In this document: piece after piece, positions 1-64,000 of the stretch
How positions within the stretch are numbered: the stretch's first letter is position 1
Layout: every line of letters starts with the position of its first letter
Source: Naegleria gruberi
Lineage: Eukaryota
DNA: 64,000 nt
NCBI GenBank assembly: GCA_000004985.1
Contig: GG738862.1
Reading direction: 5' to 3' (one strand)
Notes under the pieces: generated by a model
Databases searched by the model: none
What the model was told of the DNA's origin: nothing
Seen by the model: only the letters and a program-made list of their open reading frames with translations
Made by a program: the position numbers and the translations under genes

Positions 1-59
1 CCACACAACAATGTTTTCTCGTTTTCTCTCTTGTCCTTAGAAAAGCAAAAAAAAACAAA

Positions 60-1919: not shown

Positions 1920-2098
1920 ATTCAAACAATAAAAGATTCTTCATGAGCCATTAAAATAATGTGATGAAATTCCAACTTGGAAATCTTGCTGATTTTCAAC
2001 TGCATTTATTTATTTTTGATGTGTTTCAAACGAAACGACATCACTTCTACCAAGTTTATTATTTATAAAACAATAATGATGTAAACTAACAAATCAAT

Positions 2099-2830
2099 TT
2101 ATTGAGACAAACATTGATTAATGGATGGACATTGAGATGGAAGAATAAAATTAGCATTATCCACCTTTTCAATCATGTCATAAAAAACTTGTTCTTGAGA
2201 AGCATTCGAAACTACAACATACGAGCTCAATAACCAACACTTATTGGAGGTCATTTGTGGTTCTCTGAATGTCCACATGGTTCCAGTGGATCCGTTTTGA
2301 GAAGAAACAACTTTCAATGCATCATAATTACCAATCTTTCCTTTTGTAATCTTTCCATTGGATGCTGGAATGCAAATTGAATTCCATTGATTGAAATCTG
2401 AAACCTTTCTACAAACACATTGACCATCTCTTAAACCATACAAAACAGTTACTGTAGAACTAATCTTGATATCCCAATTGGTGTAATTGAAAACAACTCC
2501 ATCAACTGTATAACTGATATCTTGTCTCATCTTTCCAGTATTGTAATCTGCTGAAACTTTAAAGTTTCCATCGTAATGTTGTAAAGTGTTATTGGACAAG
2601 ACAGCAATTTGATTGAAACTTCCTTTCAAAGAAAAGACATTTGGCAAACAACAAATATTTGAATCAGATGGAGCTCTCTTATTGAAAGCAGAACTTTCGA
2701 ATAATTGATTGAAAACAAACATTGGAGAAGCAGCGTGGCACATTGAAGCCATGGTTGCAACAACAAGTAAGAATGAAAGAATTGTTAGTTTCAACATTTT
2801 TTTTGGTATGAGAAATTGTAAGATATTCAA
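2099..2830 (-). CDS. Secreted hypothetical protein (~230-243 aa)
   Basis: ORF with an N-terminal hydrophobic signal, MLKLTILSFLLVVATMASMCHA. The true start may be the internal Met at about 2797. There are several Cys and N-glycosylation sequons, no recognisable catalytic motif, and a 732-nt open frame in an AT-rich background. Confidence 0.55.
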   Translation of the reverse strand: MNILQFLIPKKMLKLTILSFLLVVATMASMCHAASPMFVFNQLFESSAFNKRAPSDSNICCLPNVFSLKGSFNQIAVLSNNTLQHYDGNFKVSADYNTGKMRQDISYTVDGVVFNYTNWDIKISSTVTVLYGLRDGQCVCRKVSDFNQWNSICIPASNGKITKGKIGNYDALKVVSSQNGSTGTMWTFREPQMTSNKCWLLSSYVVVSNASQEQVFYDMIEKVDNANFILPSQCPSINQCLSQ

Positions 2831-3969
2831 ATTATTTTACTAATTTATACATTTTCAAATTGGAAACTCAATCGAAACAATTTAATTGATCAATCTTGAA
2901 ACTTTAGTTGAAAGAATAAAAAGACTACAGCACCACAGGTTCCCAAGTTGTCTCCAACCTCAGTACTGATGTGGCTCGACGATGCTTAACTTCTCAAATC
3001 GGACGGGATGAGGTGCATTCATCGTGATATGGCCGTAGCCATTCTTTATAATAATCTTTCATCATTCAATTCCTTAATCTTTTACTCTTCAATTAATAAT
3101 TTTACTAAAATTGCAAAAGGAAAAAGAGTACGTGACAAATTGTTGCCAAAAGGTTTGTTGTTCTTTCTGGATAGGATTTGAAATTGAAAGAACAAGAAGA
3201 ACATCACTGCTAGATAACATCACGGAGATGTATTTATTGGTGTCTTGATGAAGATTGATGAAGTAGATGATGAATAATTATTGTTGGGAAGACATGTGAA
3301 AATTCAACTTTCCAATCTTTGGAAAATTGCTGAAAAACATTGCAAATCTACCTTTCCTGTTGTGATTTAATAACAAATCTTGTTCGTCCTGTTGAAATTG
3401 AACAAGTTTTCCAGTGCTGTTTTTGGCTGTGAAAATTAACGGTCAAACTTTCATCTTCTCCAACTCTACATCTGCTTGAAGGAAAATTTTGAAACTTTCT
3501 GGTATGATGCTAATTAACATTTAGAACAAGCCTAGGATGTTCTTGTTGCTTTTGATGATGTTCTTCATGATGAAAATATTAAAATTATTAATTTGATGAA
3601 AATATTCTTAAAGTAATACAATCGCACCCATTTGATTGTTATATCATTGCTGTATACTAATGGATGATGTGGGTTTTACTTCTCCAACTCGACAAAATGT
3701 TCCATCAATTTAATCGGTGCCTTTTAAAATTTGTAATTCATGTTGAAATACAACAAAATTAATTCCCACATGTTCCATATTATCCTATCCTCTTGTTCTG
3801 AAAATATTTTCCGCAGTGTCGAAGAATTGCCTTTGAAAATCAGCAATGATGAAAACTGTAGCAGAGTGATGAAATTTTTTCCTCTTTTTTTTTGCTTGCA
3901 CTTTCTTTCATCAAACTTCATTTAATGCAAAAACTCGGCAAAGATTTTCATTTACATATGTAACGGTTT

Positions 3970-11000: not shown

Positions 11001-14000
11001 TTAACCCATCCATTGGCTACCTTTTCCCATTTTGCATATGGATCAGTGTATCCAGACCAATAGAACTCAGCAAATATATTCAGTGCAATAGATGGTAATC
11101 CAATATATTTTTCAATTAAACAAGCAGTTTGGTAATAGCGTCTCAATAGGAAAACTTTGAGAGTGTTTTTAGGAAATGTGAATTGTTTGCTCAACACAGT
11201 GTTGTCATGAATTCTAGAAACACATTTACACCAAATTTCTACGTTTGTGTGAATAGCTAATTGAGGTTTTAGTACTGAAGGTTCCAAATTGAATGTAAGA
11301 ACTGCACAACAATTAATGTCAATCAGATTTTGTCTAATTTTGGCTATTTCTAGAGGTGGAGAATCAGTCATTGTAACAATAAGCGTTTCAATGTCTTTGG
11401 ACCACTTCAATATCAAGTTTCTGATTTTGGTCAAAAATTCAATGTACTTGTCAATAATTGATTGAGTAATATGAATATTGATAACCCTCAGAGCAGCAAC
11501 TATTAAAACTAGTACAACTTGGTATGATTTCCAGTTTTCCTTATACTTTTCCAATATAGATTCGAGCAATTCCAAAAGTTTTGAGCAAAACATTGAATTT
11601 TGTAATGGCTCATTAACTTCTCTGTACCACACATCAGAATCGTTTGGGCAATTTTGAAGCATGGATTGAAGCAGTAGAACAGTAACATCTGGCCTCTGAA
11701 TGGAAAGTTTTTCATTGGCCAAACATCTCACTATATTGTGCCACTGTAGTCTAAATCCTGCCCGTAGTGAACCATATTCTACAAACTCGGCCAAACTTAG
11801 ATTTGGATGACAGAGTGCTTGGTTGGCTATTACTTGATTTTGAGAGTGATCGAAACCACTAATAGCCCATTCCAGATTGGCATATTCAGGTGATTCAATT
11901 TTAAAGGTAAAATTACTTTCCTTCATTGATGAATGAGTCATTGTGTATGTGTGGTCGTTACCAACTGTTGCCACTAGGTCACATCCATTTGGTTTTAAAA
12001 AGCTATCCTCTGAACTCTGTACATGCTGCCGTGAGTAGTGAGTGTCAGAAAATCCTTTCACAGTACTACCAATAGTTGAGCAAGGTGGACGTCCAGATGT
12101 GAAATTCTCAAGGTAGCCTTGTTCTCTCCAAGTGCTTGGAATTTTATCTGTTTTCTGAACTCGGCATTGAAGCTGAGCCATACAGAAGAATGCATCTCTA
12201 TAATTCATATAATAATTCGGAATTAATAATTCAAAAACAATTGCATATTGTTCCACATATCCTGAAGGTAAAAAATCTTCAAAAATTGAAACATAAGTAT
12301 TGTCCAAACTTCTTTTCAATGAGCATTTGGAGCAATATTTGGAATGCCTTGTATAGCCATGAACATTAATGAAATATTCACATTCCATATTATTGTATCT
12401 GTTATAGTTTCTTTGATAATCATTCTTTCCTCTCCTTACTTCTTCAAGCTTTTGTTTTTTTCTTTCTTCATTCTCTTTTAGAATTTGATCCAATGTTTGT
12501 CTCATTGTCTTGTCGTGTCTCACAAAAAGGACACAATAGGAGTTAGCACTGAGTTTGTTTGTCAAAAAATCACATGGGCGTTTGGTTGTCTTATCGAAAC
12601 GTGTGAAATATTGTTCCAATTCGAGAGCAAATTTCATATCACTCGGAGAATCGAGTAATAAATATTTAAATGTAGATACATCCACTCCTGTTGAATATTC
12701 TTCTAACAGTTTGGAGCATGAAATGGCTATAATGTGCATAGCTTTCAAGAAGCCAAATAATGTCAGTATGAATCTGCTCTTTCCTATTGGATCGTTTTCA
12801 TAGAATTTCGAACCTAAATTGTAATAGGCATCCATTTTCTTATATACTGTATCAGAGAATGATTTTCCCTTCTTACTTTCATCAATGATTGTGAATAGCT
12901 CGTCTCTAACCCATGATTCATACTCCATTAATTGTCTTGTTGTGTAAATGTTATCATGTTCTTCCTTAGGAAGTGATGAATTCAAAAGACTGATTTCCCT
13001 TTGTTCAAAAAGGGTTTTGTTGTCCTTAATCTTTTGCAGAGAGTTACTTAAATTTTGAGAGCAAGAATCGGTATTCTTTGGAAAATTAGTGTTAAATGTA
13101 TCATTCTTTTTGATTTCCTGAATTGTTACATCCATTCTTTTTTGGATGAATTCCTTTGTGTCTCTAGTTGTAAATAATGCTGATGACTTGGATACGTGAA
13201 GCATATCCTTTAACTTTTGATTATTCACCTCTTTGCTTAAGGTACTTTTAAGGTTTTCTAACTTGGTCGCTCTCAATGAAATTTTGATTATCATTTGCAT
13301 TAGATAATCATTACTCATATTAATATACGTTCTCGCTTTTTTGCATAAATAGCTCATAAAATCCAGCATGAAAAGTTTGTAAAGAAACTTCCCCTGAATA
13401 GGTCCATATATTTTGTTGAATTTGTAATGCAGTGATGCTTTCAGGGAAATCCAGAAAGGAGATCTTCTTGTGCCATCCTGTTTAGGCCTCACAAAACTTC
13501 TCACTTTCTTTTTAATATTATTAGCTACAATATTAGTAGGACCACCAGAGAGTAGTGAAAGCATCCATTCTGTTATTAAAATTGGAGAAGAAACTTCTCT
13601 ATCTTCCGAAACAACTGTTCCTTTCCTCTTTGTTTTTGCTGAACTCATTTCCTGACTTTCAGTCAAATAAGTTAATTGATTTAAAAATGATTGACTTTCT
13701 AATACTGGAATATTATCATCCAGTACTGAAACTGATAACTCGGGATAAGTCATGCAACAAATGTCACATTTATAAATATTTGCATTCTTTGGATGACAAG
13801 TAAATGCTGACGCAATATACTTTGGTGTACTATCACTCGAATATTCGAACATTAACAAACAATTATTTCCAGTTAAATAGAACGAAATGCAATCATTACT
13901 TTCAGTCAGGTAAGATGTAATTGTTTTTCCCTTAGGAATGTCAATATCATTCAAATTAGATTGCACTGCAGCAATATTTGCAAAATATTTATCCAACCAC

Positions 14001-14299
14001 TTTAAGGAAATACCAGATAGTAAATTATCCGAATGTTCCTTTCTAAATTCCATCAAATGGTGCAAAACTTCCATATTTTCATCCAATCCACTTTGTTTTA
14101 TCGTGTAAAACACATCGGAATACATTCTAAACATTGACTCTGATGCCGTCTTACTCCTCTGTGATGACGATAACGTACCAGAAGCCTTTGTTGGCTGATT
14201 ATTGTTTGCATTATTTGCCGTTGTGTTAGTATTTGCTGTTGTTGAAGTTTGTTGCGAAGAAGAATTCGCTGATGGAACAAAAACCATTTTTTTTTTCAA
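5072..14299 (-). CDS. Giant 3075-aa single-exon protein with a P-loop-like GEGKTS motif (possibly the DUF3638/DUF3645-type large eukaryotic protein family)
   Basis: Uninterrupted 9.2-kb ORF. It has an N/T/S-rich N-terminus and a Walker-A-like MGEGKTSVIIPMLVLAFN near aa 1870, followed by hydrophobic strand-like segments. The family assignment is from memory of the GEGKTS context only. Confidence 0.8.
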   Translation of the reverse strand: MKKKMVFVPSANSSSQQTSTTANTNTTANNANNNQPTKASGTLSSSQRSKTASESMFRMYSDVFYTIKQSGLDENMEVLHHLMEFRKEHSDNLLSGISLKWLDKYFANIAAVQSNLNDIDIPKGKTITSYLTESNDCISFYLTGNNCLLMFEYSSDSTPKYIASAFTCHPKNANIYKCDICCMTYPELSVSVLDDNIPVLESQSFLNQLTYLTESQEMSSAKTKRKGTVVSEDREVSSPILITEWMLSLLSGGPTNIVANNIKKKVRSFVRPKQDGTRRSPFWISLKASLHYKFNKIYGPIQGKFLYKLFMLDFMSYLCKKARTYINMSNDYLMQMIIKISLRATKLENLKSTLSKEVNNQKLKDMLHVSKSSALFTTRDTKEFIQKRMDVTIQEIKKNDTFNTNFPKNTDSCSQNLSNSLQKIKDNKTLFEQREISLLNSSLPKEEHDNIYTTRQLMEYESWVRDELFTIIDESKKGKSFSDTVYKKMDAYYNLGSKFYENDPIGKSRFILTLFGFLKAMHIIAISCSKLLEEYSTGVDVSTFKYLLLDSPSDMKFALELEQYFTRFDKTTKRPCDFLTNKLSANSYCVLFVRHDKTMRQTLDQILKENEERKKQKLEEVRRGKNDYQRNYNRYNNMECEYFINVHGYTRHSKYCSKCSLKRSLDNTYVSIFEDFLPSGYVEQYAIVFELLIPNYYMNYRDAFFCMAQLQCRVQKTDKIPSTWREQGYLENFTSGRPPCSTIGSTVKGFSDTHYSRQHVQSSEDSFLKPNGCDLVATVGNDHTYTMTHSSMKESNFTFKIESPEYANLEWAISGFDHSQNQVIANQALCHPNLSLAEFVEYGSLRAGFRLQWHNIVRCLANEKLSIQRPDVTVLLLQSMLQNCPNDSDVWYREVNEPLQNSMFCSKLLELLESILEKYKENWKSYQVVLVLIVAALRVINIHITQSIIDKYIEFLTKIRNLILKWSKDIETLIVTMTDSPPLEIAKIRQNLIDINCCAVLTFNLEPSVLKPQLAIHTNVEIWCKCVSRIHDNTVLSKQFTFPKNTLKVFLLRRYYQTACLIEKYIGLPSIALNIFAEFYWSGYTDPYAKWEKVANGWVKAALLTDSGFTAIAFNIVRGTFLVNGNPIGRLPDPITADAKYKRVFGNFVFDVQQATRPDAFVTSYDIDGCQLEFRKSMQFILKHGSETSILLSHKIFEYDLPAQFVENYSHWYDVTTNCVLFRPISFFSPKFKSSIAYKLDVTEKKLKEVGTERVLMNYFGETYTEVLKSISRIELKHNIHIFANNDEVLVELPRLGLHFELVNNSYLRSKEFSMIVCDSFYCGTLIGLSNAIMLKDENPNSSKKIVLVPNGEISTEKFKHHHLTRIDMTKSIDTPYFTYSVNEYMWQLEANDSLSSWLFLALLHGITSSVIVDPFTKLTGYESALKILKSARCWPMRPLSKLETSLLEAISSISPDRSFHPPKMKVNEKITWPKTNLSSLCLLDAYKLIVDSIVKKSEETIFLDGESGSSVKKSDEEDPLFLARRYYKAYLNYYNPIVRLRISSQKDVNYVETIKISSMTSYVACKYLASISKNNFQKISAVELINSVSSFNPEKKVENFLYDWKNIDLEDDFLTLYEAAKTQTPADFKVFISYLGYVFPEKKKMLACFMIINLFANSFRNQHSPLIFSSVDDLECTDFDEDDVINLLKAANSRLTFDDEDDHETFNNDIRTCLRFAEIAFNKEQLMEKNKFGRLNFIDKSEAVDHINNYLSTLYNRERVQKFLQGIKSVLQNMMNNAKGDITIVNITMENLQPNETNQTFDIQNFTKVQEDGNKLVFGLADVPEMAKYIFEKGDISPYCEKDVIKTLEHDVQLFSHDSHDPLYNEYILDLEGSYLTANNPNQVTSAQLPNISVILELKEKIWKALECKLSNFSDTAKSAIAECGISNRLCPYLLFQDLISDTEQYCGCKDLIGALAVLTTLEQRYNRLKLMNNDPNKKVQFDRELENSGHVNWSPKKFPQWLLLEIELDLMIRPRQYEVANHMLSSSTNMVLQFNMGEGKTSVIIPMLVLAFNEAQIPRLTVLKQLLQTNYTYLSFKLGGILNRKVIYLPFSRDLKITATDLKTIRSVLEVMEKERSILITVPEYRLSFELKGIEKAIAKESIAHDYLRLQDYFEKHCRDILDESDEILHVRYQLIYTVGEQKDLDMGNLRWILPQKIMRIVRKHAESLFNKLGASHVEFFTRGDSHTFPYFRVLDKTSYNQLVDLIVDDILEGRASEIFIPYKLNDRENIKKILTAETISQTELDILSTMSNDILKSEILLMRGIFAFGLLYHSLNKRWRVNYGVNPNIKRLVAVPYRAKDCPSDRAEFGHPDIAILLTLLSYYYSGLTNEQLDVVFQFLQRIESPDVEYEKWVYEMKNIPESIKHYKSINLEDFIQKTQVLYPALRNNMAVIDFFLNRAVFSRECKQFDRKISASAWNLCKESKFPTCGFSGTKAFLLPITIKENELPSLRGTTGELLKILLSKENEEYHVVKQAEITNFISELNANNQRVLIDVGALMLEMSNMNLCKYWLNSVTEQVADAAVFFNTQDQLVVLDRNGLIIPFEISPYKNKLERCLIYLDDIHTRGTDLKFPTGMKAAVTLGNGLTFERLCQACMRMRLLGKGHSVAFWASQEVDRFINDNFSQQLTIQERILKWSIHNRVQMENDHYLQWSTSGLLFYSKKIAKTEYDAKLKMDEYAEQCTENELFKISDFYGQERYEQYLLSIFEKRALHISKLFSIDISPSLELIRANINKRAHSKTIFSQILNEEQERELENELEEQRIVERPQKCDPAATVIDDTLELFMKKGILQEEYDVSIQPLKARPLSESLEETLLASPINWNHNIYATDNYLKTVSNASKNSPFFKPVTWLAYSEYSQTIIILSPEEANHYIQKLDKFSPTRILMFCSRTSPTSRIMIDEPAWSVPNNNFEIADKVLLNLLTDIHIFAGSLYFANQLEQDEFCKFLGIAPKPYAPNSKEEELFQQSIIDEFGLISRESLEGLPLLYKCRIFNRDAVKYLRTIINIRDKSCLFELSHLYNVLINNQKIVFK

Positions 14300-14467
14300 G
14301 CAATTTTATGAAATTTTTTCCATCACGTGATGAGAATATAAATTTATTTAATTTTGCGCAATCGGAATGAATTTTCGGAATTAATTGAAAGTAAACAAGA
14401 TAACAATAATAATATTGTTTTTACAGCAGCAACTTGTATTCAATTTGGTGAAAGTTATTAAAAAACT

Positions 14468-27890: not shown

Positions 27891-28261
27891 TTATTTTTAG
27901 GTTGTGTTTGATGAACTTTTGTTCATGATCACCGATCAAGTGTAAGCATGTCCATCTAATGAGCCAAGCAAGGAGTGAATAAGTTTTTTAAAACATGCTC
28001 ATTGTTAAAGAAGCAATGAATACATTGAGATGATTACCACCATTCAATGAACACTCATTTAACACTAAATAATGAATGTTCAATAACAAACAATCTAAAA
28101 CTGGGATATTCATATCTAAAATTGTTCCCATTATTATTGTACTGGACTCTATATCCCTCCTTAATTAATTTGAACATCTGTAAATCACTGTAAATATCTA
28201 TGTATTACAATAACTGTTTTAGTCATCCACACAATAATCCCTTGGAAAAGCAAACAAAAAA

Positions 28262-29410
28262 AATGTATCAATATAAAGCATTGCTTAGTGTCACTTTGCT
28301 GATAGTTTGTTTACTGGCATTAAGTATTTTGCATGTTCCATCATCTGTTTTGTGTGCTTCCTCAAGTAGCTCATCAAGTAATGGAACTGTGAGAGAATGG
28401 CTGAGTGACTTGAATGATCAAGCTGCTAACTTACAATCCTCTGCTTCTAGATTGCAAAAAGCTATTGCAATTTTGAGTATGGCCAACAATACAGCATCCA
28501 TCATCAGCATGAGGAGTGCTCAACTCAAGAAGATTAATTATGCTCTTGACATGATTAATCAAGAAATTTCAATCTTTAAAACCACATGCAGTAATAATGA
28601 TGGTCCTGATTGTACCATTCCTATATGTGTATCAAAGTGTTTGAATTGTACTGCACCTGGCATATGCTCACAATGTTATGGCAATTGGAATGGTACTGAC
28701 TGTTCCTATTGTAAGATGGGATGGAAAGGCATTGATTGTAACACTTCTCAATGTGATTCAAAGTGTTTGATATGCACTGGACCCTCTCAATGTTCAGTTT
28801 GTTCTGGTAACTGGGATGGTGCTAACTGTACTACTTGTAAGGCAGGATGGGCAGGAACTAATTGTGCTACCCAAGTTCCTGTGGGAGATTTATCATCTTC
28901 TTCCATATTGACACCAGTTAATGCCACAAGATTTGTTTCTGAAATAGTTAATAGTGTAAGATCCAAACCAATTACACTATTGTATAGATCTTCAAGAGAT
29001 AGTTATAATCCTTCAATCTTCCATAGTTTATGTGATAATAAGGGGCCAACTATTACAATTGTTAAGGCTAATACGGGAGCCATATTTGGAGGTTATACTT
29101 CAATTAGTTGGAATTCAGGTGGTGTCAATTTTATAGTGACCCAAATGCTTTCTTATTTAGTATTATTTCTTCAACAGGAGAGCAAAGATTTACAAAGATA
29201 CTCCAACAACCACCATACGCCTATAGTATTTATACATCTTACCACCATTTCCCTGTATTTGGTGCCGGGAATGATCTTTATATTGGCACAAGTTATTGCA
29301 GCACTACCCCTTCCTCATACATATATCAATCCAGAGCTTATTTCGCTTGTCTCCCAAATGTTAATTGTGATACTTGGGTTCTTTCAGATTTCGAGGTTTA
29401 CTCGTTGTAA
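28262..29410 (+). pseudogene. Truncated paralogue of the 60-1919 Cys-repeat/TLDc gene with a 1-nt frameshift inside the TLDc region (pseudogene or assembly indel)
   Basis: The first ~420 nt, 5' flank included, are ~95% identical to 60-480. Only about three Cys-rich modules remain. The reading frame breaks at about 29129-29132 in a T-run (...ISWNSGGVNF then SDPNAFLFSIISSTGEQRFTK continues in the +2 frame). The ORF-track pieces are 28200-29420 and 29108-29410. Confidence 0.6.
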
Positions 29411-29963
29411 GCAAATTTAATCTGACGAAAACAACATGTGGATACTCAATACTGTTGAAACCTTTCAAATAGGGACTGTGGCAAGATAAATGATCTGGTG
29501 GTTCCAAAACACTGCTGTGATAGCAGCATTCCCAATATTTCTTATTGTGCCATCCAAAAGAGATAATTTACTAGTAAATGATTGCATATCCTTTCACTTC
29601 AGCCTCACAAACAACTCTACAGTATCCAAAGGAAGCCTTCTCGTTTTTCCTTTCTATTCTTGATATCCACCAGTGGCTGTATCCTTGTTCATTTCGGTTT
29701 TTCCTTCCATGAATTGTTTAATTAAGTCCACTGTTTGATTTTTCCTTCCATGTATTGTTTAATGAAGTCCACTGTTATTGATTCTTGTTGATGGTTATTC
29801 TGTTATTATTGTTGATGATGATGCAGTTTGTTGCCAAGAGTCAGAATTTTATGAATCATCAGACTAGGATGATACCTCCTTTCTCTTTCTTGCCATTTTT
29901 TTTAAACATTAAATTAAACTTTGTTACAAAGGCGGGAACAAGTTCATAGTCTTACAAAAAAAA

Positions 29964-31860: not shown

Positions 31861-32889
31861 TTAATCAATACGAATGACAACCTTACCAACATGCTTTTGA
31901 GATTCCATATGCTTGAATGCTTCTTGAGCTTGATCAAAACTAAAGACCTTATCAACAACTGGATGAATATCATTATTTTCAATAGTCTTGACCATATCTT
32001 CAAACATGGCACGAGAACCAACAATGAATCCTCTCAAAATTGCTCCAGAAAATAAAACACTCATTCCAACATCAAAATTATCATTTGGATCCTTTTGAGC
32101 TAATAAACCAATCATGTGAACTTGACCTCCTCTCTTGACAGATTGTAAAGAACGTTGCAAAGTGCCAGCACCTCCAACTTCAATAACATGATCAACACCA
32201 TTTGGCACAATTTCTCTAACTTTTTCTTGCCAATTTGGAGTTTTAGAATAATTAATTAAATGTTGAGCTCCCAAAGATTTGGCCTTTTCCAATTTTTCAT
32301 CACTTGAAGAAACAACAATGACCTTTGCACCAGCAGCAACTGCAAATTGAGCAGCAAAGATGGAAACACCACCAGTTCCAATAACCAAAACTGATTGAGA
32401 TGGTCCAACATGTTTAATTCCATTTTGTGCAAGTGCATGATAAGCAGTCAATCCAGCACATGGCAAAGTAGCTGCCTCTTCAAATGTCAAATTGGATGGC
32501 ATCTTGATAATTCCATGCTTTTCAAAAACTCTATATTGACTCAAAACTCCATGACTCGATCCACCCAAATCATTGGCCATATGTTCATCCTTCATATCTC
32601 CAGCAATCCAATCCTGATGAAACAATCCACATACTCTATCTCCAACAACAAATTCCGAAACATCCTCTCCAACACTCACAACTTCACCTGCTCCATCCGA
32701 GCAAGGAATTAATTGTGATGGAAATGGTCCCGGATACAAACCCTTAACCACCAATAAATCACGAAAATTCAAGGAAGCAGCACGCATACGAACGAGTACT
32801 TGTCCTCTTTTTGGTTGCGGAATGGTGGCTTCCTGGGTGAGAGCCAAATTTTCAATGCCTTCGTGTTTGGCAATGTGGTAGGATTGCAT
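31861..32889 (-). CDS. Medium-chain dehydrogenase/reductase, quinone oxidoreductase/zeta-crystallin-like (342 aa)
   Basis: GQVLVRMRAASLNFRDLLVVKGLYPG... then a nucleotide-binding VLVIGTGGVSIFAAQFAVAAGAKVIVVSSSDEKLEKAKSLGA. Typical MDR length. Confidence 0.8.
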   Translation of the reverse strand: MQSYHIAKHEGIENLALTQEATIPQPKRGQVLVRMRAASLNFRDLLVVKGLYPGPFPSQLIPCSDGAGEVVSVGEDVSEFVVGDRVCGLFHQDWIAGDMKDEHMANDLGGSSHGVLSQYRVFEKHGIIKMPSNLTFEEAATLPCAGLTAYHALAQNGIKHVGPSQSVLVIGTGGVSIFAAQFAVAAGAKVIVVSSSDEKLEKAKSLGAQHLINYSKTPNWQEKVREIVPNGVDHVIEVGGAGTLQRSLQSVKRGGQVHMIGLLAQKDPNDNFDVGMSVLFSGAILRGFIVGSRAMFEDMVKTIENNDIHPVVDKVFSFDQAQEAFKHMESQKHVGKVVIRID

Positions 32890-33177
32890 TTTGCACAGTT
32901 TTCGAGTTTTTTGATTTTTTTTTTATTTTTTTTAAATTTGTTTTTGGCGCGAGATTCTTGTGAGAATTAATTTTTTTGAGATTTGTGATGAATTTGATAA
33001 AATTGGAAGGTTGTGAGAGTGGATTGTTTTAAGATATTTGTTAAGCTTTGATGTTCTTTGGATTGTTTTCATCAAGATAAACACTTTTGAAAAGAAACTG
33101 AAAGAGAACAGAAAAGATTAAGGATGACAAGAGATGAAAGTACTTTAAAAAGAGTGAGAAACAAATGATTCTTACAT

Positions 33178-51243: not shown

Positions 51244-54200
51244 ATGCGCAGACTGCTCGTTTTGCTGAGTTTATTCTTGTTTATTCAGCTTGGTTATTCG
51301 AAACTGGTTGAGTATAGATGGGAACCTATCAGTGGTGTGGCCAAATTTTCAACATCTTTTGCCAATGCATACCAATCCGAAAATCAGCCAGAAATTATAT
51401 ATTTTCAGGAATCTTCTTTTCGTATATTTAAATATAATCAAACTTCTGGTGATCGAAAATTATTGCTTGGTTGTTATACTAGTAGTATTTGTATGCCCGA
51501 GAATTCGGTTTCTACTGGTGATATCAATAGTGCAACTACCATTGATCTCACCATTACTGCTTTTCATGTGGACGAAACTTCATACGAAACTATTTATGTT
51601 GCTACCCACAAGCAGATCTACAAATTTCAAAATGGAAATTTAATTCTTCTTTCCAAGCAGTTAGGAGCTTCCACTACCATTCAGGAAGGTTCAGCACTTT
51701 CGAATACCACTTTCACCAAAATTGGTTCAATTTCTAGGGATCCTATTGGAAACTTGTATATTTGTGAGGAATCAAACCTATATAGAGTTGATTTAAACGG
51801 AATTATTAATTTTATGAGTTTGCGAGGTGGATTTACGCTAACCAAGAAAGATGGCTTTTCAAACGAAACAATTTTTTCAACTTATATTTCGAATATAAGA
51901 TATCACAAGGGATACTTGTATGGATGTGATTTATTCTCAATATTCAAGATTAATTTACAAACATGGTGGATGACTGTCATTCAAGGGAGACAATTTGATG
52001 GAAATACCAATGATGGACCTGCTTTGGATGCTAAAGTGAATTTTGTGTATGGATTTGCAGTTTCTCCTCTTGATGATTCAATTTATCTTACAAATTTAGG
52101 ATATTGGAAAGTGATTAATCAAACTACTGGGAATATTTCGACCATTTTGTTGTTCGATTCATCCATTGCATCACCAACTTTTTTCTCACCAAATCATATT
52201 TTAAATGGACAAACTATAATGAAAACTGATTTGTCCCTTAAACAAGTTTATCCAATTTTAACTATTAATGGAGCTATTAATGATGGTACTAATGTGCAAA
52301 ATAGAGTGTTTGATTCAATAGCTGCTATTGCGTTCAATCAATCAAGTAATGAACTATTAATTGCTGATTCTAATTTTGGATTTAATTTGAAGAAAGTGGA
52401 TTTGACAACTGGAACTGTGTCTACCATTACATTAATAGACAAATTTTCAAATGTTTCATGTTGGAATTCTTCTGAAGAGACTAATGAGAGTTTTATCCGT
52501 TCAAAATTCATTCCCAATGCATTACAACTCAGAAATTCTGATTTATACGTTTCATCAACTCAGATGATTCAAAAAATAGATGTATCTAAAGGAAATGGTT
52601 GTTTCTATGCTGGTTCCATTACTGGTGATAGATTAAGAAAGGAAGGTCCTCCGTCCTCAATAATTTTGAAAAATCCAACAGGAATATTCTGTCTCGATTC
52701 ATTTTCTACGATTTATATTGCAGATACTGATAATCATAGAATTCTCAAATATATCTCAAAAGAAATGGTAGAGGTTATTGCTGGTATTGGAGTTCAGGGA
52801 TTTTCTGGTGATGGAGGTTTGGCAATTAATGCTCAATTAGACAAACCTCATTCAGCTCATTTTGATAAGATTTCTGGGAATATTTACATTGCTGACAGTG
52901 GAAACCACAGAATTAGAATGATATTTCCTAATGGAACAATAACCACAATTGTTGGAAGTGGTACTAATGGATTTAATGGAGATGGATTGAATCCATTAGA
53001 AACTCATCTCAACTTACCAAAATATGTATTCTATGATTCTGAAATTTTATACATTTCAGATTCTTTCAATCATAGAGTCAGATCTTTTTTCAATGGAACT
53101 ATAAGTACAGTATTAGGAAATGGAATTACTGGATCTAGACTTGTTCCCAATAATCCTAAAGAAACTCAATTGAATTCACCATTTGGATTGTTTGTTTCAA
53201 ATTATAATCTCTTTGTAGCAGGTAAGTTTCTCTTTCCTACTAGTTAGGATACATTAATTTATATTAGATACTTATAATCACAGAATATTGTGTGTTTATT
53301 ATGATTCCAAGGTTGAAATCATTGCTGGAACAGGTGAATCAGGTAAGTTTCTAATACATTAATGAATATTGATGAGAATAGGATATAATGGTGATGGTAT
53401 GGTTGCAACACAGGCAAAACTCTTCCTACCAAGTATGGTATCTGTAGTTGACCAATCTATTATTTATATTGCTGATACTGCTAATAACAAAATTCGTATA
53501 ATTTCTAGAGGTGTTATTTCATCCTTCTATGAAAAAATAATATCTCCAATTGGTTTATGCCCAGAAGTGTCATATTTTGCTTATACAGCAGGAAATTTAG
53601 TTTTATCAAATGGTCGAACGGAACCACTTGTAGGAGGTATTGCAGATGGATTGAATGTCTTTTATGCTAATGTAAATCCCACAAGAATTCTGTTAACTAC
53701 AGACAACAAGATGGTCATTTCGGAATCTGAAACTAATAGGATTAGAATGATTGATAATATTAAGGGAGGTATCAAGACAATTTCTGGAACAGGTAAATTT
53801 GGATTTAGTGGAGATGATAATGCTGCAAACCTTGCCATGCTAGCTTCTCCAACTGGATTAGCACAAGGAGTAGATTCCAATTTGATTTATTTTGCTGATT
53901 CAAGTAATAATAGAATCAGAGTAGTAACTGGTGCCTCAACTTTGACATCATTAATAATGACAAAAGCTGGAACAGGAGATCAATCATATTCTTTTCCTGA
54001 TTTACCGATAGATCCACTGAAGGCCAAGTTCAATACTCCAAGATTAGTGTCTAGGTTAAGCAATGGAAATATTCTGATTGGAGACACTCTCAACTATCGA
54101 ATTCAGATGATTTCGAATACTGAAAATGGCGAGAAATTACGAACCATAGTCAATGTAGCAGACGCATATGGAAGTTCAGTAATTACAGACATGGTTGTGA

Positions 54201-56010
54201 CCGAGCAAAATATAATTCTCGTCTCCACTATGGATGCAATTTACAACCTCTTGCCCCTTTGTGATAAGGGGTATCAACTTGTGAATAACAATACTGAATG
54301 CCTTCCTATTTGTTTTGGATCTCTTGGGCAATTTTCCTGTTCAGGCAGAGGCAAATGTGTAGAGCCAGATAATTGCTCATGCCTTCAGGGACTCTACACA
54401 GGAAGTCAATGTGAAATTCCAATATGTAATGGAATTGCTGCAAATGAATCAAGCGTTTGTTCTTATATGAATGGTACTTGTGGAATCAATAATCAGTGTA
54501 CATGCAAGGATGGATTTTATGGCAACATGTGTGAGAATCCAATTTGTTTCTCACAAATAGTTGGAGAATCATGCGGAGGTAGTCTCAGAGGAACTTGTAT
54601 TCATAAGGATAGATGCTCATGCAATCAACATTTTACTGGAGAGCGTTGTGAATTAAGAATGTGTTCAGGAAAAAGTGAGAATGACACTAAAGTGTGTAAT
54701 GGACATGGTAAATGTGTGGAAAATGGAAGATGTACCTGTGACGCTTTATATTCTGGTTTAGATTGTTCAGATATGAGTCAAATATATGCCTTAGGTATTA
54801 GTGCTTCTATTGTTCTATTGATATTGACTGTATTGGCTGTGGTTTCTATTATATTAGGATTAGTTGTTCATAGAAAGAATAGAAAGGAAAGAAAAATATT
54901 GGAAACTGAGCTATCTCTTGATGAGAGGTTGCTATCAACTACTGACGCATACGAAATGTCTATTTCTTCTGCTTCTAGTAATATTCATTCAACTAGTGAT
55001 GATCCTTCCTCTTTTGTTATTCCTCTCCATAAAATTGGAATGGATAAACCAATCAAGGTAAGTTTACTTTCGAATATAACAATTATTTAACAATTTTAAT
55101 ACAGAGACTGGGAGAAGGTGGAATAGGAAGTGTATTCATGTCAAAATATAATGGAATGATCGTTGCAGTTAAAGTATTTGATTTAAATAACTTGAACATT
55201 TCGGAAGAAGATTTCAAAAATGAGGCTATTCTATTAAGCAAACTTCGTCATCCTAATATTATCAATTTTTACGGAGTTTCTACATCACCAACGAAACGTT
55301 ACATAATTATGGAATGTTTGGATCAGAGTATGGAGAAGGTGATTGCCAAATTAGAGTTTAAACAATTAACTCTCTCATTGGATCAAAAATTGAAAATGAT
55401 TCTTAATATTGCTAATGGAATTGAATATTTACACAGCTTGAAACCAAGAAAAATCATCCATCGTGATCTAAAACCACAAAATATTCTATTGGATTCGAAT
55501 GGAAATTGTAAATTGTGTGATTTTGGATTGAGCAAATCCATTTCACAAGCAACTGTTTCTGCACTTACTAATCAGTTGGGTACACATTTCTACATGAGTC
55601 CAGAAATGTTTGATATTAATGCTGTTGATCCTACCTATGCTACTGCAGTTGATATTTACAGTTTCTCAATAATCATGTGGCAATTATTATTCGAAATCAA
55701 AGATCCCTACCTCTTTAAATCGTCAGAATTATTCCACAAATTGAAAACGAAATCACTTGAACAAGTCTCATCCTATCAGCTTACCAAAATGATTTGTGAA
55801 AATAATTATAGACCTTCTATTCCATTCCAATCTATCAACGAATGTACAGATTGGTGTACCGAATTTATGAAGTCAGAACTAGGAAATACTTCAACAATTT
55901 TCAAATTGGGCCAATTGATTAAAGAGTGTTGGCAAGCAGATCCAAAACTCAGACCAAGTATTGAACAAGTTGTAGATCAATTACAATCACTTGAGAATGA
56001 GCTTGTATAA
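51244..56010 (+). CDS. Receptor protein kinase with four exons: signal peptide, NHL-repeat block, second NHL block, EGF-like repeats, TM helix and a TKL-type Ser/Thr (or dual-specificity) kinase domain
   Basis: Exon 1 51244-53221 (MRRLLVLLSLFLFIQLGYS, NHL repeats such as ADTDNHRILKY and ADSGNHRIRMIF). Intron 53222-53267 (46 nt). Exon 2 53268-53342 (DTYNHRIL...IAGTGESG). Intron 53343-53381 (39 nt). Exon 3 53382-55057 (NHL repeats, EGF-like CSGRGKCVEPDNCSCLQGLYTGSQCEIPIC..., TM LGISASIVLLILTVLAVVSIILGLVV then HRKNRKERK). Intron 55058-55104 (47 nt, gtaagttta...aatacag). Exon 4 55105-56010 carries the kinase subdomains LGEGGIGSVF, VAVKV, HRDLKPQNILLD, DFGLSK and SPE. All donors are GTAAGT and phases are consistent. 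Confidence 0.8.
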
Positions 56011-56420: not shown

Positions 56421-57511
56421 ATGTCAACAGCATTCAACAGTACCTATATGAATGTCACCAATGATTTCTTTCCACCTGTGTGGACCAGCAGTACATCAAT
56501 TGGTAACAGTGTCTTGTATCTCTCTCTGTACTCAATTTACTTGATTACTTTTATTATTCTATTCTCAAGGATAAATGGACGAATTAAGATCTTGAACGAA
56601 AGTGCAAAATCCAAATCACGGAATAAAGTGATAAAGAGGAACCACATTATCATATTTGCCTTCGTTCTGATTCTAATCCTTGTTGAAATGATTAATTTGA
56701 TTTTACGAATTGTTGGAGATGGATTATCGCTCAATGCAAGAATGAAACTGGACAATAATATGCAAGTTCTCACCAGTGAATATCTTGCCATTTGGATAGT
56801 GAATGGATTTTCAACTTTATTCATGTATTCCAATTTCATCATGCTCTTTTTGATAATGTTTGTTGTTCAAATGATATTGTAAGTAATTCATCTGAAATAG
56901 TCAACTGAAAAATTGAAAGTTGGAGAACAGCCATGATTATGAGATCCATTTCAAAATTTGCATTTCGAAGAATTAAAGAAATATCCACAATATCCATTAT
57001 CATCTCTGCAATTCTCATACTTACATGCAATATCTTTTTAGCTATTACCATACCCTTGACCAAAATGGGAATAATAGATAATAATGTCTACACCATTCCA
57101 AATTTTATTCTGCTACTCATTGTTGTTATATTATTTATCAAAGATATGCTTGTTGTTTTGATTTCTGGTTTCATGGTCATTCGAACCATTAAGAAATCCT
57201 TAGAAAAGAATAACAAATCAAAGAATGACAAGCTGGAGAACCCATTCATTGTCATAGTGTCCCTAATGATTGGTTTAGTATTGTGCATTTTCCTTCAAAT
57301 CTTTGCAGGGGTATTGGCTGGTGTTTTGCTTAGTACGGAGCTAAAACACTTAAAGTTTCTGTGGCACTTTTTTAATGGATTGGGAATAATTGTATTTGCC
57401 ATATTGAATTTGTGTTTATTCTATCCATTATTTGTACAAACACAAATGGTGTTTGAGGAATTACATATTGATGATGTCAAGTCAACTGTATCAAGTCAAG
57501 TACAATCTTGA
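56421..57511 (+). CDS. Seven-TM (GPCR-like) membrane protein, two exons
   Basis: ATG at 56421 (MSTAFNSTYMNV...). Seven hydrophobic helices run across the two ORF-track pieces. A 47-nt intron at 56879-56925 (gtaagtaatt...gttggag) joins ...VVQMI to L-TAMIMRSISKF in frame. No family motif recognised. Confidence 0.55.
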
Positions 57512-57649
57512 GCCATGTAATCAGAAAAATTTCTTGTTTGTAAGAAACAATCAAGAATCAAGAGAGGTTGGTGAATTGACGGCTTGGGATGACTTTCAGA
57601 TCAGGAATAAACTGACTGGCAACAAACTTGGAAAGCTCTAAATTTTGTG

Positions 57650-60600
57650 GAATGGATAATCCTTTGTTAACCTGTCATTCTCTCTCCGCACATATTCAGA
57701 TCTTACAACTTATCATTGTGATGAATGATAGACTGATCTACATGTGTTAAAAACGTGTAATATGCTTGATATAACCAATAAAGTTTAGAATTTTCCAGAA
57801 ATACCCTTTCGCCAAGATTTCATTTTGCCATATTTGGGATCTCCACAGAAACCACTATTGAAATATAAAATGTACAGATATGTGAGAAACATAATGTGGT
57901 GAAACTGATCAATAACTCGTTGAAATGACTGATATGGATTGCAAACTATTGTTTACTTGTCATGTAATTGTGACTAGACAGTGTCAATTCCACTAAAGTA
58001 TTTCATACTGAATTGACATCATCAAATACACTTCTATACATCATATATATCATATAGAACTAGTTTTAATATTTGATATTGTGAACTGACTCTGTTGGAT
58101 ACCATCTCTATAAATATAGCTAGATGAAAAGTGTCAATATTTGTTTTCACATACATGTTACTATGGAGAGTCCTCATTATATCATCTAAATAGGTATTTC
58201 TACTTTCAGTGGAATTGACTTTAGAAATAAATATTTAGTTGACTTGAAGATATTGAGCAGGGAATATGAAACTTTCTCAGATTGTTCTCCTCATCTAGGG
58301 AAGTGTATTCATATTTTATAATAGTATGATATTTTGTAAAATGACTGAGATAGAATGTAATCTATGAATTGAAAGTTGACTTTTTGATAGATTGTTATTA
58401 ATATCATAGTGAATTCAATTCTGACAGACTGAAATTGATACTATATGTATAATAGTATGATTAAACATACCTGGTAAAGTTACACGATGGTTGGATGTAC
58501 TTTCATTGAGATAGAGTGTACACTTGGATATAAGCACTATTGACATTGAACATTAACTGACTGACTAATTGAAAGTAATACGAATTGTTTCCAAACTACT
58601 ACCAGTGTATTAAATAGATGTATACTCTGTGTGGTATCAATTCTAGACTGATTGTACGTGTAATGAGTGAGTTGGAGTATAATCTATGACATCATGTCAA
58701 ATTTCTATAGTAAATTGATAGAGTTGATATGGGGTTGGTTAGGATTCAGAGTTGATTTATTTGGGTTATTTAAGAGATTACTTATTGAAGATTCATATCA
58801 TTGATTATATTTCTTATCATCTATAAATGATGTAAATTTGATGTTTTCATTTCTTGTATTGATAGATATATAAAGGTCAGGTCAGTACTAACTTTTGAAA
58901 TATGGAGTTGGGTTGGTGGGGTTTGGGTGAGTTTTATACACTTTCATACAATAGAGTGATATTGAAATGTACCCTTTGATATTTCTGGATGGGTAGCATG
59001 ATTTAGTGATGATTCCGACAATAAAAATCATATATTGTTCATATAATTATCAAGATATTGTATAATTTATTAAATATAAAGTGGGTAATATTGAATATTC
59101 TTTGTAGGAGCGGAAGCACTTATTCTTGTCAGTTGGAGTCAGTATTGTATTAAGGTTCATTTAAGGAATCTTAAAAAAATACAATAACAACTCACCTGCA
59201 TCAACATCATCAAGTATATCATCTATATTGAATATAAAGCAACAGCAAGAATGTATGGAGTTGATTCAACATGATTATTGGATTGGAGAGATGGCAAAAA
59301 TATTACTATTATTGTATTTGTCAAGTTGGAAGTACCCTCAGGATCATCAGCGAGGTTTCCTCTTCATCTCTTCTTGTTAGAGAGGTTTTTCATCCACAAG
59401 ATGGTCATCTTCTTCAATTGAAGAGGTTGCTTTATTATTAAGCACTGAGAGAAGCGTTTTTAAATTTTATTTTGATGAAATAAATCAAAATTTATTACGC
59501 ACAACACATCAAGAACAACAACAGCAACATGCTGATACACCATCATCATCACTGGGTGAATTGGCCATCATTGTTGTATAATTTCTTGGAATTTATTGGA
59601 TTAACAGTAAATTTTGGAATTACTCTCCTATTGAAGATGGAACATCAGCAACATCACCAAGATGATATTTAATTGGATAGTATTGTTTTCAGGAGTGGTT
59701 TCACGCTTTTTGTGGGCTCTTTCAACATACCATCATAAGAATGGTCATCATCTTGTTGAGGGAAGATGTTCAACCTTGTTTTGGAAGGTAGAATATCTTA
59801 CCACCACTCTATTCTCCTATTTTGATTGGATTGGTGGAGGTGCCACCACCTCTTCATACATTACATCAAGTTGAATCTTCCCTCCATCATTTGATGGGGG
59901 AGCAACTTCTCCCTTCCATATTGTTTAATAAATTATTGTTATTATCATATAATGATACAATTATTGTTGTTGTTTGTTGTTAATTGTTGTTCTTAATAGA
60001 AACCGACAATTCCCCCTTAATAAGTTATACAACCACTTGGTTATTCGTATGAATTATTTCTAGATAATAATGCTATAGCACTGTTGGTTCAGTGGTTGTA
60101 TGTTGGAATGTCAATTAAGGGACGAGTGATCGATTCAGGGTTTTGGGTTTGGGTGGGTTTGGGTTTGGGTTAGACGAAAACCCATCGACGACTAACGAAC
60201 GGCCAATATTGAGTATCTGAATTTCATATATGTCATTCAAATATTAATAAAAAGCTTATATTGTAACGAAGCAGTCATATCTCAAAGTAGTTATAGAGAT
60301 AATCAACTCTGATAAAATAAAAGTTAGGTTTTCCCGGTATTACTCTATGAATATGGAGATCGCCGGTCTGGATTAAATATATGTAGTAGACATAAATATG
60401 AGTTGACTATATTCGCAAATAAATTTGAAAAATATCATTGCGTTCAAAAATAATAAGGCACTGCCTGAAATATTAAGGTTTTTACCCTAGTAGGTCTAAA
60501 ATTTCAAAGTTGGGTTGAAATTTAAATTTTAATATATTGTAGATATATATATGAATAGATGATATTATGAATTAATCATGTTGAATCGGTGTATTTAACA

Positions 60601-61815
60601 AGTTACAACATGTCTAAATATTAACTTTTCAACATTTATTGTACTATTATATGAATGTTATTAGAATCATCATCAATCTCATATATATGATGTATAATGA
60701 TGATTTTCACATTGTAGAAGTGTTGGAAGTATAATATATGATATCCTTAGTATACTGTACTCATTCTACCTTAATTGACCAAGATATTGAGCCATACTAT
60801 GGAAACACTATACCAATTTATTAAACTTGTTAATATTGTAGTAAATATCAAATATAATCATATATAATTGAAATAATCATTATTGGATCCATACTCAGAC
60901 TGTAGGAAGTCAACTTGTGTGAAAATGACAATATCGGTAATTGAAGGATGAATATCATACATGACTTAATTCCACTCATTGATACATGTCTAATTATCAT
61001 ATTTTATGATATGTAATTGAAATAATTGAAATCTATCATATATATAGGGAGATAACCAATTAGGATGAAAGTAGGGGAAATTAAGCTCACTATTTACCAG
61101 GTAAACACTTTCAATAAGGACCTACATATTTTATTTGATAATATCGTTTAACTATGCATTTTATCGATAAATACCTCGTTTCATGATGTAATATTCTATA
61201 TTTCCAATTTGGGAAATGTTGCAATGTCAATACTCAATAGAAATATTGCCATAATACCAATTATTGATTATATATCATGAAACTGATATTATAGACTCTA
61301 ATTGATGTATGTATGAATGTATGATAGAAATATTTCAATTTTGACATTTCTTAATGACATGGATAGTTCACTAAGGTAGTAACTTTGTCATATGACAACT
61401 ATCTAAGATGATATTGAAATCATTCCAAAATTGATAATATGAGAGTATTTGATGATTATAACATGACTATATTGAATTAGAATTGATTCTAATCATTATT
61501 GACATGTAAGAATGCAACCTTTGATCCATTGGGTCAGTAACTTGACAGATATCCCATTTATATAGATATTGATTTCTATCACTCAGTAACGTTACCAATA
61601 TCATTTATAAGAGTAGTGGTATTATATTCTATCTTGTTGCACATCTTGATATTGACTTGTCATATTGTCATGAGTAGTTACCTACATGGCTAAATGACAT
61701 GAATACTGAATGATGTCCAAATGATATGAAATTGATAGGAACCTCATTATATGATGTTAATAACATACTGTATCAATTTGGTAATGAATCTCATTGTCCT
61801 TAGGGTACTTCCTTA
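57650..61815. repeat. Gene-free AT-rich degenerate satellite-like tract
   Basis: No ORF over 70 aa across ~4 kb. Short words recur, such as tgatat, attgaa, catgat and gtcaat. Degenerate telomere-like runs occur at about 58909-58932 and at 60137-60172 (GGGTTT for about 5 units). Confidence 0.6.
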
Positions 61816-62088
61816 NNNNNNNNNNNNNNNNNNNNNNNNNNNNNNNNNNNNNNNNNNNNNNNNNNNNNNNNNNNNNNNNNNNNNNNNNNNNNNNNNNNNN
61901 NNNNNNNNNNNNNNNNNNNNNNNNNNNNNNNNNNNNNNNNNNNNNNNNNNNNNNNNNNNNNNNNNNNNNNNNNNNNNNNNNNNNNNNNNNNNNNNNNNNN
62001 NNNNNNNNNNNNNNNNNNNNNNNNNNNNNNNNNNNNNNNNNNNNNNNNNNNNNNNNNNNNNNNNNNNNNNNNNNNNNNNNNNNNNNNN
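61816..62088. other. Assembly gap (273 N)
   Basis: Run of n. Confidence 1.
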
Positions 62089-62934
62089 ATTCCCTAATTG
62101 ACCATATATATATTACCAATTGATGAAACTAATATCAATCGACTAGATTTTCAATTGTGAACACAATGGTATCAATAGTTATATGATTCATGATAGTTTA
62201 AAATTGAGTTGGTCATCTAAGGATAGGTCATTAAGGTTTGAATGAATTGATATGAAATTCAATACCAATTATTGAAATACCATGATTAATTGATCTATAT
62301 ATGATGCTATAATTGAAAGATTTTAAAATTAATATGATTTGATTATCTTGATATTCATTATTCCCATGATTACACTCCTGACATGTTGAATGATTTCAAA
62401 TTGTCATGAAACTGATACAGTGGTGTTCATTCACCATTAGTAAGGTACTGTATCAATTTCATAAAGATTGGTATAGTTGATATCATTGTCACATCCCTGT
62501 TGGTATCAAGTGGATCAGCCATGTACCATGTATGATATGGATGAATGTCAAAATGATATTAATGTATTTAATTATCATGTATAGATGTATTGGAAGTGAA
62601 TTGAAGTGGTATAGATTTCTATCTTCAATGTTAGTATAGGTCAGTTGACAAGTTGAATAGTTAATTTCCTGATATGATACCAAAGTATTTGAAATTGATA
62701 TATATTGTTATTAACATGATTTATAAGGTGATATATTGATTTGAAATGATTTTGAAATGTTTTCATTGATATTCTAATTGTCTAATCTATTATATGAAAT
62801 TAACTTAAATAAGTTATTATAATGATGTAATATTATGTTATAATATGATTATATATTCAATTTGGAGTATATTGATATATAATATATTGATTTATAATGA
62901 GTATTTATTGAGATAATTAATTAAGATGAATAAA

Positions 62935-63322
62935 GGTTTGGGTTTGGGTTGGGTTTGGGTTTGGGTTTGGGTTGGGTTTGGGTTTGGGTTTGGGTTTGGG
63001 TTTGGGTTTGGGTTTGGGTTTGGGTTTGGGTTTGGGTGTTGGGTTTGGGTTTGGGTTTGGGTTTGGGTTTGGGTTTGGGTTTGGGTTTGGGTTTGGGTTT
63101 GGGTTTGGGTTTGGGTTTGGTTTGGGTTTGGGTTTGGGTTTGGGTTTGGGTTTGGGTTTGGGTTTGGGTTTGGGTTTGGGTTTGGGTTTGGGTTTGGGTT
63201 TGGGTTGGGTTTGGGTTTGGGTTTGGGTTTGGGTTTGGGTTTGGGTTTGGGTTTGGGTTTGGGTTTGGGTTTGGGTTTGGGTTTGGGTTTGGGTTTGGGT
63301 TCGGGTTTGGGTTTGGGTTTGG
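62935..63322 (+). repeat. Telomere-like hexamer array, about 64 GGGTTT units (TTTGGG in telomere convention) with occasional GGGTT or GGGTGTT variants. The G-rich strand points to the right end.
   Basis: Read directly from the sequence. The array abuts a 50-N gap at 63323-63372. Confidence 0.95.
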
Positions 63323-63372: not shown

Positions 63373-63414
63373 ACTGAATTATGCAATGTTCACAAAATGT
63401 CTGAAATTAGAACC

Positions 63415-64000
63415 ATATGTAGTATTTGAGATGTTAAACATGATGGTAAAGTTGCATAGAGTGGTCATTTTCCAGATTTTCATCCATGTCCACAGTTGAC
63501 TAGTTGGTATGAAAGGGATGAAATCATGAATATGAAAGTGAAAATAAACTTGATATTCTATCTCTACTCATCGAATGGAGCATTTTCATGTATATATTGT
63601 TGGTTGAAGTGATGTATTTGATAGAGTTGGTCTGACTTGTCTTTCTCAACAATAAAATATCAACATTTACCTTCCCATGATACCATTTCTGATTTTTATG
63701 ATATGAAATTGAATTCTATATCATTATATATCATCTACATCATGTTGGTAAAGTTTCAATAGGTGGTCCTTTTTCAAGAGATTTCATCCTTTTGTCATAG
63801 TTGACCATGATGGTTGAGGGAAGAAATCTTTAAATATGAAAGTGAAAATAAATTTGATATTCGATGTTTACTCATCAAATGGAACATTTTCATATTAGGA
63901 TTCAATATGTTTTGATGAGAAACTCAAAAGTTATAGGTGACCTCTTTTACCTCACATCTTCCCTTTTCACTCGATACTTTTATATCTACAGACTTGTACT
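63415..64000. repeat. Tandem repeat with a period of ~300 bp, about 1.9 copies at ~80% identity, running to the window edge
   Basis: catgatggtaaagttgcatagagtggtcattttccagattttcatcc...gttgac at ~63438 recurs as catcatgttggtaaagtttcaataggtggtcctttttcaagagatttcatcc...gttgac at ~63738. Likewise atatgaaagtgaaaataaacttgatattc...catcgaatggagcattttcat at ~63530 recurs at ~63835. Confidence 0.8.

Follow-up and report, generated by a model that had tools for sequence, protein, structure and literature searches.

A telomere-type (TTTGGG)n array in a subtelomeric setting of the Naegleria gruberi draft genome, probably a true chromosome end followed by a misplaced contig

A (TTTGGG)n array at positions 62935 to 63322 of a 64,000-nucleotide stretch of Naegleria gruberi DNA (contig GG738862.1 of assembly GCA_000004985.1), hereafter called the window, has a repeat unit of the telomere type and lies in subtelomeric surroundings. 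We consider it probable that this array is a genuine N. gruberi telomere and that the contig carrying a ~304-bp repeat on its far side was placed after it by a scaffolding error. The initial annotation had offered a misjoined chromosome end or an interstitial tract as the two readings of the array. This was the right pair of alternatives, and although the window alone is indecisive between them, the evidence presented below favours the first. The features of this part of the window are as follows.

53366-56007: NHL-EGF-transmembrane-kinase gene, one of the last clear genes (ORF analysis).
56421-57508, plus strand: multi-pass membrane protein, apparently with two exons, the last gene before the subtelomere (ORF analysis).
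57509-61815, no strand: gene-free AT-rich subtelomeric zone (GC 0.26-0.31, compared with ~0.34 in the gene-dense part; ORF scan).
58725-58770 and 58905-58930, plus strand: two weaker G/T-rich telomere look-alikes (73% identity to the 60.14-kb tract).
60137-60172, plus strand: degenerate interstitial telomere remnant of 36 bp, GGGTTTTGGGTTTGGGTGGGTTTGGGTTTGGGTTAG (mismatch-tolerant motif scan).
61816-62088, no strand: scaffold gap of 273 N between the main contig and the small contig (1,234 bp) that bears the array (sequence).
62089-62934, no strand: unique AT-rich sequence proximal to the array on the same small contig (self-comparison; no ORFs).
62935-63322, plus strand: (TTTGGG)n telomere repeat array (TRF, unit parsing, match to the published motif, PMC3622300).
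63323-63372, no strand: scaffold gap of 50 N directly after the array, across which there is no continuity (sequence).
63373-64000, no strand: two diverged tandem units of ~302-304 bp, non-coding (self-alignment, autocorrelation, nhmmer).

The array had been described as about 64 GGGTTT units, and the repeat analyses agree with that description: TRF returned a period of 6, 65.2 copies, 96% matches and a score of 732 over 388 bp. When the array was parsed into units, 58 of 66 were perfect GGGTTT and none (0/66) was GGGGTT. The eight variant units comprise GGGTT (three times), GGTTT (twice), GGGTTC (once) and GGGT+GTT (once), and the rare 5-nt units, GGGTT and GGTTT, could have arisen through telomerase slippage or Sanger read error. 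As a tandem array of a short T/G-rich unit, the tract has the form of the canonical telomerase-type repeats, the units of which are 5-8 nt long. A search of the window with the (GGGTTT)3 18-mer, in which up to three mismatches were allowed, gave 65 matches, all of them on the plus strand, compared with 0.03 in dinucleotide-preserving shuffles. The G-rich strand runs 5' to 3' toward the right, as had been noted earlier, and hence away from the genes, which end to the left of the array at ~57.5 kb. No inverted (CCCAAA)n array was found in the window, and a head-to-head telomere fusion is therefore not supported. The sequence GGGGTTGGGGTT is absent throughout the window.

The two edges of the array are of different kinds. 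On the left, unique sequence switches sharply to the repeat (...GATGAATAAA|GGTTTGGG), with no degenerate transition zone. On the right, the array abuts the 50-N gap directly and the contig break falls inside the repeat, which truncates it, so that its length is at least 388 bp. The initial annotation placed gaps on both flanks; this is accurate for the right flank, whereas on the left the 273-N gap lies 846 bp upstream, and the array therefore occupies the distal part of a contig of only 1,234 bp (62089-63322). The varied lengths of the N gaps fit a draft that was scaffolded with mate pairs. A satellite beside the array, which had also been proposed, could not be substantiated: the proximal AT-rich DNA contains nothing beyond weak self-similarities of 56-62%, its periodicity (z of 2.4-2.9) is no stronger than that of a coding control region (z of 3.0), and TRF calls no satellite there.

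Subtelomeres typically combine a gene desert, AT-richness and telomere relics in the same orientation. In the window, genes are densely packed as far as ~57.5 kb, after which 5.4 kb without coding signal follow before the array begins. Between 57.5 and 64 kb, we found no ORFs of note, no coding potential and no protein-level paralogs of window genes, and the zone beyond 57.5 kb, the 60.14-kb tract included, has no Rfam match; neither a tRNA nor an element resembling a telomerase RNA was found in the window. The membrane protein encoded at 56421-57508 has no detectable homolog in a collection of 5.8 billion proteins, in which the protein itself was not found either, and it may be an orphan or may be unannotated in the reference. 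A higher-GC patch within the gene desert, at 59165-59980 on the plus strand, contains a run of five short ORFs that overlap, change frame and have no paralog in the window; they may be what is left of a pseudogene that decayed at the subtelomere edge.

The 36-bp tract at 60137-60172 shares its strand with the main array and accounts for two motif matches, compared with 0.03 expected window-wide. Contiguous non-telomeric sequence lies on both of its sides, and the tract is thus interstitial. The look-alikes at 58.7-58.9 kb, which fall below the threshold set at three mismatches, are possibly older telomere remnants. The three tracts are positioned 2.8-4.2 kb proximal to the array, and the one at 60.14 kb adjoins an unusually CG-containing segment (~60100-60480). 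A telomerase RNA or another non-coding RNA encoded by this tract and its CG-containing flank was considered and rejected, given the lack of an Rfam match and the fold z scores of -0.62 and +0.13 for the two strands; moreover, a 36-nt imperfect repeat exceeds the length of every known telomerase template. We read the tract as an old telomere that was left internally, and not as an RNA gene.

The host was identified through the ORF at 31864-32892. It matches with 100% identity a "predicted protein [Naegleria gruberi]" at NCBI, the scaffold of which is 502,116 bp long; the next-best matches come from N. lovaniensis and Willaertia. The motif had suggested a ciliate or a variant genetic code, and both were rejected on the grounds of this identity and of the ORFs of up to 3,077 aa that the standard genetic code gives in the window. 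The longest of these, at 5075-14305 on the minus strand, is a single uninterrupted reading frame with low-complexity stretches rich in N, Q, S and T. Two further ORFs on the plus strand, at 3-1916 and 28194-29417, encode paralogous cysteine-rich proteins with near-identical signal-peptide-like N-termini, which we read as secreted; in the first of them, tandem coding repeats of 126 nt and 90 nt specify CxxC/EGF-like modules.

TTTGGG has been known as the candidate telomere repeat of N. gruberi since 2013, when Fulneckova et al. reported it after surveying scaffold ends in silico (PMC3622300). The survey covered 143 genome assemblies and weighed candidates by their position and by their orientation with respect to the adjacent sequence; the finding of only internal blocks, or of short or occasional terminal repeats, was taken as inconclusive (PMC3622300). 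Internal blocks were also present in most of the genomes that had terminal arrays, and the authors stated that experimental confirmation was still required (PMC3622300). The array described here is one instance of the result of that survey. The suggestion that its unit, being different from the common types, would help to place the organism does not hold up, as TTTGGG was already published for N. gruberi and no new telomere type is involved. In the literature that we searched, there was no experimental confirmation of the N. gruberi repeat by Bal31 digestion, TRF Southern or TRAP, and no other paper that tied TTTGGG to Naegleria. The N. fowleri nanopore paper makes no mention of telomeres, and a full-text search of the Naegleria pangenome paper for 'telomer' gave zero occurrences. 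A nanopore re-assembly of the N. gruberi genome exists (PMC12695648).

Metagenome contigs from all organisms were scanned for (GGGTTT)6. In the first 80 pattern-match loci (L002-L081), there were 60 internal arrays, 15 terminal ones in the telomere orientation and 7 terminal ones in the wrong orientation. Because most of the matches are internal and some of the terminal ones are wrongly oriented, the motif alone is not diagnostic of a telomere. In the WGS project JAESGV01, all 12 of 12 contigs (L006, L029, L030, L041, L055, L079, L081, L085, L086, L087, L107 and L121) carry (TTTGGG)n exactly at the contig end, with the G-strand pointing outward. Internal arrays broken by the assembler would leave the two orientations equally often, and 12 of 12 therefore has a p of ~2^-12 under that null hypothesis. 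Each of these ends has its own sharp and unique junction to AT-rich sequence, and ORFs lie 0.1-3 kb away.

A P4-ATPase fragment beside one of the JAESGV01 ends matches Acrasis kona with an E value of ~1e-84 and 42-48% identity, whereas the next named taxa are found at ~1e-28. Because the best match is A. kona, far above the next taxa, the organism is assigned to the Heterolobosea; going by this single fragment, it is apparently an uncultured Acrasis-like heterolobosean. Its contig ends support TTTGGG as a real telomere repeat in Heterolobosea. The same motif is thus present at many independent ends, those of N. gruberi according to the 2013 survey (PMC3622300) and those of the JAESGV01 heterolobosean by direct observation, which suggests that TTTGGG is common to telomeres across the Heterolobosea. 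The JAESGV01 ends resemble the N. gruberi array in having the G-strand outward and a sharp junction to unique AT-rich sequence. They differ in that they come from another genus-level lineage, in that genes lie 0.1-3 kb from the telomere rather than ~5.4 kb as in the N. gruberi window, and in that the arrays are 50-140 bp long, having been truncated by short-read assembly, compared with at least 388 bp in N. gruberi. Since the 12 ends have sharp junctions, the sharp junction in the N. gruberi window is normal.

In one of these contigs (L087), a 1,254-aa ORF at 1-3762 runs straight out of the terminal array and appears retroelement-like from its sequence; it could be a retrotransposon that landed on the chromosome end or is targeted to it. 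The search of named relatives gave no further chromosome ends. The ADH copies of N. lovaniensis and Willaertia are positioned mid-contig in different neighbourhoods, and no chromosome end of a relative was found there; the N. lovaniensis ADH locus (L001) has no match to (GGGTTT)3. Neither of the A. kona P4-ATPase loci extends to a telomeric contig end; the one of the two that was scanned (L122) lacks (GGGTTT)3.

The sequence beyond the 50-N gap is at least 628 bp long, as it reaches the end of the window. It had been described as ~630 bp of different repetitive sequence with a ~300-bp tandem repeat, and we found the same: two copies of a unit of ~302-304 bp, which are 77% identical over 195 bp and 90% identical within a core of 61 bp. 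The autocorrelation peaks at lag 304 (z of 4.6). No telomere units are present in this piece, its left edge included, and its first bases are non-telomeric. Relatives of it were not detected in the other 63 kb of the window, either by BLAST or by nhmmer at E<=10, nor does it overlap with the sequence at 62089-62934. The ~304-bp repeat as a dimer of a ~150-bp proximal satellite was rejected, because nhmmer detected no similarity between the two and the proximal periodicity (z of 2.4-2.9 against 3.0 in the control) is no signal of such a satellite.

That the array has the character of a telomere is indicated by the G-strand pointing away from the genes, the drop in GC, the same-strand remnant, the published motif and the 12 of 12 ends in JAESGV01. 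For its being a true end, we can cite four further observations. With a length of at least 388 bp, a purity of 96% and all its units on a single strand, the array contrasts with the 36-bp degenerate relic upstream. The contig breaks within the array even though a block of ~400 bp is within the reach of a Sanger read. The far-side piece opens with non-telomeric bases and has neither telomere units nor kin in the window. Both distal contigs are small and joined by gaps only, where mate-pair ordering is least reliable. Against a true end are the order of the scaffold, in which the array is not terminal and the placement of the distal contig implies some clone-level linkage, and the upstream remnants, which show that distal sequence has been gained over former telomeres before.

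One interpretation of these results, and the one that we prefer, is that (TTTGGG)n caps the chromosome at the distal edge of the gene-free AT-rich subtelomere. By analogy with canonical telomeres, telomerase would extend the 3' G-rich strand from an RNA template of the CCCAAA type, which would hold one complete CCCAAA repeat or more, together with a few nucleotides for alignment. Capping proteins would bind the double-stranded repeats and the 3' overhang, and the array would thereby shield the end and offset replicative loss. The far-side piece would then most likely not be physically distal on the same molecule. It may be a small repetitive contig that was misplaced or misordered during mate-pair scaffolding, or it may come from an allelic or paralogous subtelomere.

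Alternatively, the array might be a real interstitial tract in a layered subtelomere that resembles the X-(TG1-3)n-Y' arrangement of yeast, with the true terminal telomere lying beyond the window. Toward the chromosome end, the proximal subtelomere would be followed by a former telomere that is now internal, a distal telomere-associated repeat of ~304 bp and the terminal telomere, and the distal element would have been copied onto the chromosome end by break-induced replication or recombination. We judge this to be unlikely, if worth serious consideration. The scaffolder did put the contig with the ~304-bp repeat distal to the array, and the same-strand remnants at 60137-60172, and possibly those at 58.7-58.9 kb, would be the products of earlier rounds at the same end. 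Furthermore, tandem repeats are common among telomere-associated sequences in general, and the 2013 survey found internal blocks in most genomes with terminal arrays (PMC3622300). However, an array of at least 388 bp and 96% purity is unlike the degenerate 36-bp remnant, and the gap breaks continuity at a place where Sanger reads could have crossed ~400 bp. The lack of telomere units at the left edge of the far-side contig, and of any relative of its repeat elsewhere in the subtelomere of the window, also argues against an internal position. A form of this proposal to which we give equally little credence is that the array is internal on at least one haplotype, where a long pure (TTTGGG)n tract would be followed by the ~304-bp telomere-associated repeat and then by a second, terminal telomere. 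If true, this would mean a very recent capture of the distal element or a polymorphism of the chromosome end, and, together with the Acrasis-like contigs, it would make TTTGGG the ancestral telomere repeat for a large part of the Heterolobosea.

Another scenario, which seems to us quite improbable, is that the two homologues differ, one ending at the array and the other continuing into the ~304-bp repeat, and that the assembler laid the two ends in series. The shared proximal part would have been collapsed, and the short end would be either a shorter allele or a truncation that was healed by a new telomere at ...AATAAA|. The sequenced strain is reportedly heterozygous according to the N. gruberi genome paper, which counts for this scenario, as does the linkage of two small distal contigs by gaps only. 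The abrupt change from unique sequence to telomere could also be taken in its favour, but it does not discriminate, because sharp junctions are the norm at the 12 ordinary JAESGV01 ends as well. Moreover, the second allele should run on from 62934 in unique sequence, and no such contig is visible; nor does the far-side piece overlap with 62089-62934.

A large-scale misjoin, in which the scaffold would run far past the window into the DNA of another chromosome and the telomere would mark the join, is very unlikely. Unrelated sequence does follow the telomere-bearing contig, and the scaffold is 502 kb long, but there is no sign of a long gene-bearing sequence beyond and no inverted telomere array, and the far-side piece that is visible is a non-coding tandem repeat, more like subtelomeric junk than chromosome-internal sequence. 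Finally, an ordinary GGGTTT microsatellite with no role at a chromosome end can hardly be entertained: the (GGGTTT)6 matches of other organisms are indeed mostly internal (60) and sometimes wrongly oriented (7) among the first 80 loci, but the motif is published for N. gruberi itself (PMC3622300), the array has a subtelomeric context and orientation, and the 12 contig termini of a related heterolobosean are all correctly oriented.

We return to the preferred reading, that of a true chromosome end followed by a misplaced contig. It offers little new biology, as a telomere array beside a scaffold gap is a routine feature of a Sanger draft assembly. It does flag a probable local scaffolding error, or a chromosome end, in a 502-kb reference scaffold, and the junction ...GATGAATAAA|GGTTTGGG can anchor this end in long-read assemblies. 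A telomerase RNA template of the CCCAAA type is validly predicted from TTTGGG, and the motif shared among heteroloboseans narrows the template to be sought in heterolobosean telomerase RNA. The TTTGGG contig ends of the Acrasis-like heterolobosean are a mildly new by-product of the analysis.

The closest known case is the N. gruberi candidate of Fulneckova et al., with which the array shares the species, the hexamer and the type of evidence, namely where the repeat lies in the JGI draft assembly and how it is oriented there. It differs in that a gap and then a small contig with repeats come after it in the scaffold, where it is not strictly terminal. To our knowledge, the telomere of Paramecium is the only other well-known one that contains TTTGGG. 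There, TTTGGG is a minority product interspersed with TTGGGG in a telomere made by telomerase, and it has been explained by misincorporation or stuttering while the TTGGGG-type template of a single telomerase RNA is copied (PMC13085455, PMC5855555). The likeness consists in the TTTGGG hexamers. In contrast to the mixed telomere of Paramecium, the array here is homogeneous, with no interspersed GGGGTT among its 66 units, which implies a dedicated template; and whereas Paramecium is a ciliate, the host here is a heterolobosean with the standard genetic code. The third comparison is with interstitial tracts. Such tracts are known from subtelomeres, as at the X-(TG1-3)n-Y' junctions of yeast and in the (TTAGGG)n islands of human subtelomeres, and they are usually short or degenerate. 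The degenerate 36-bp tract at 60137-60172, on the same strand as the array, fits this class. The main array differs from the yeast and human tracts in its length of at least 388 bp and its 96% purity, and in having a distal flank only across a 50-N gap; it too would fit the class if the far-side contig were truly distal.
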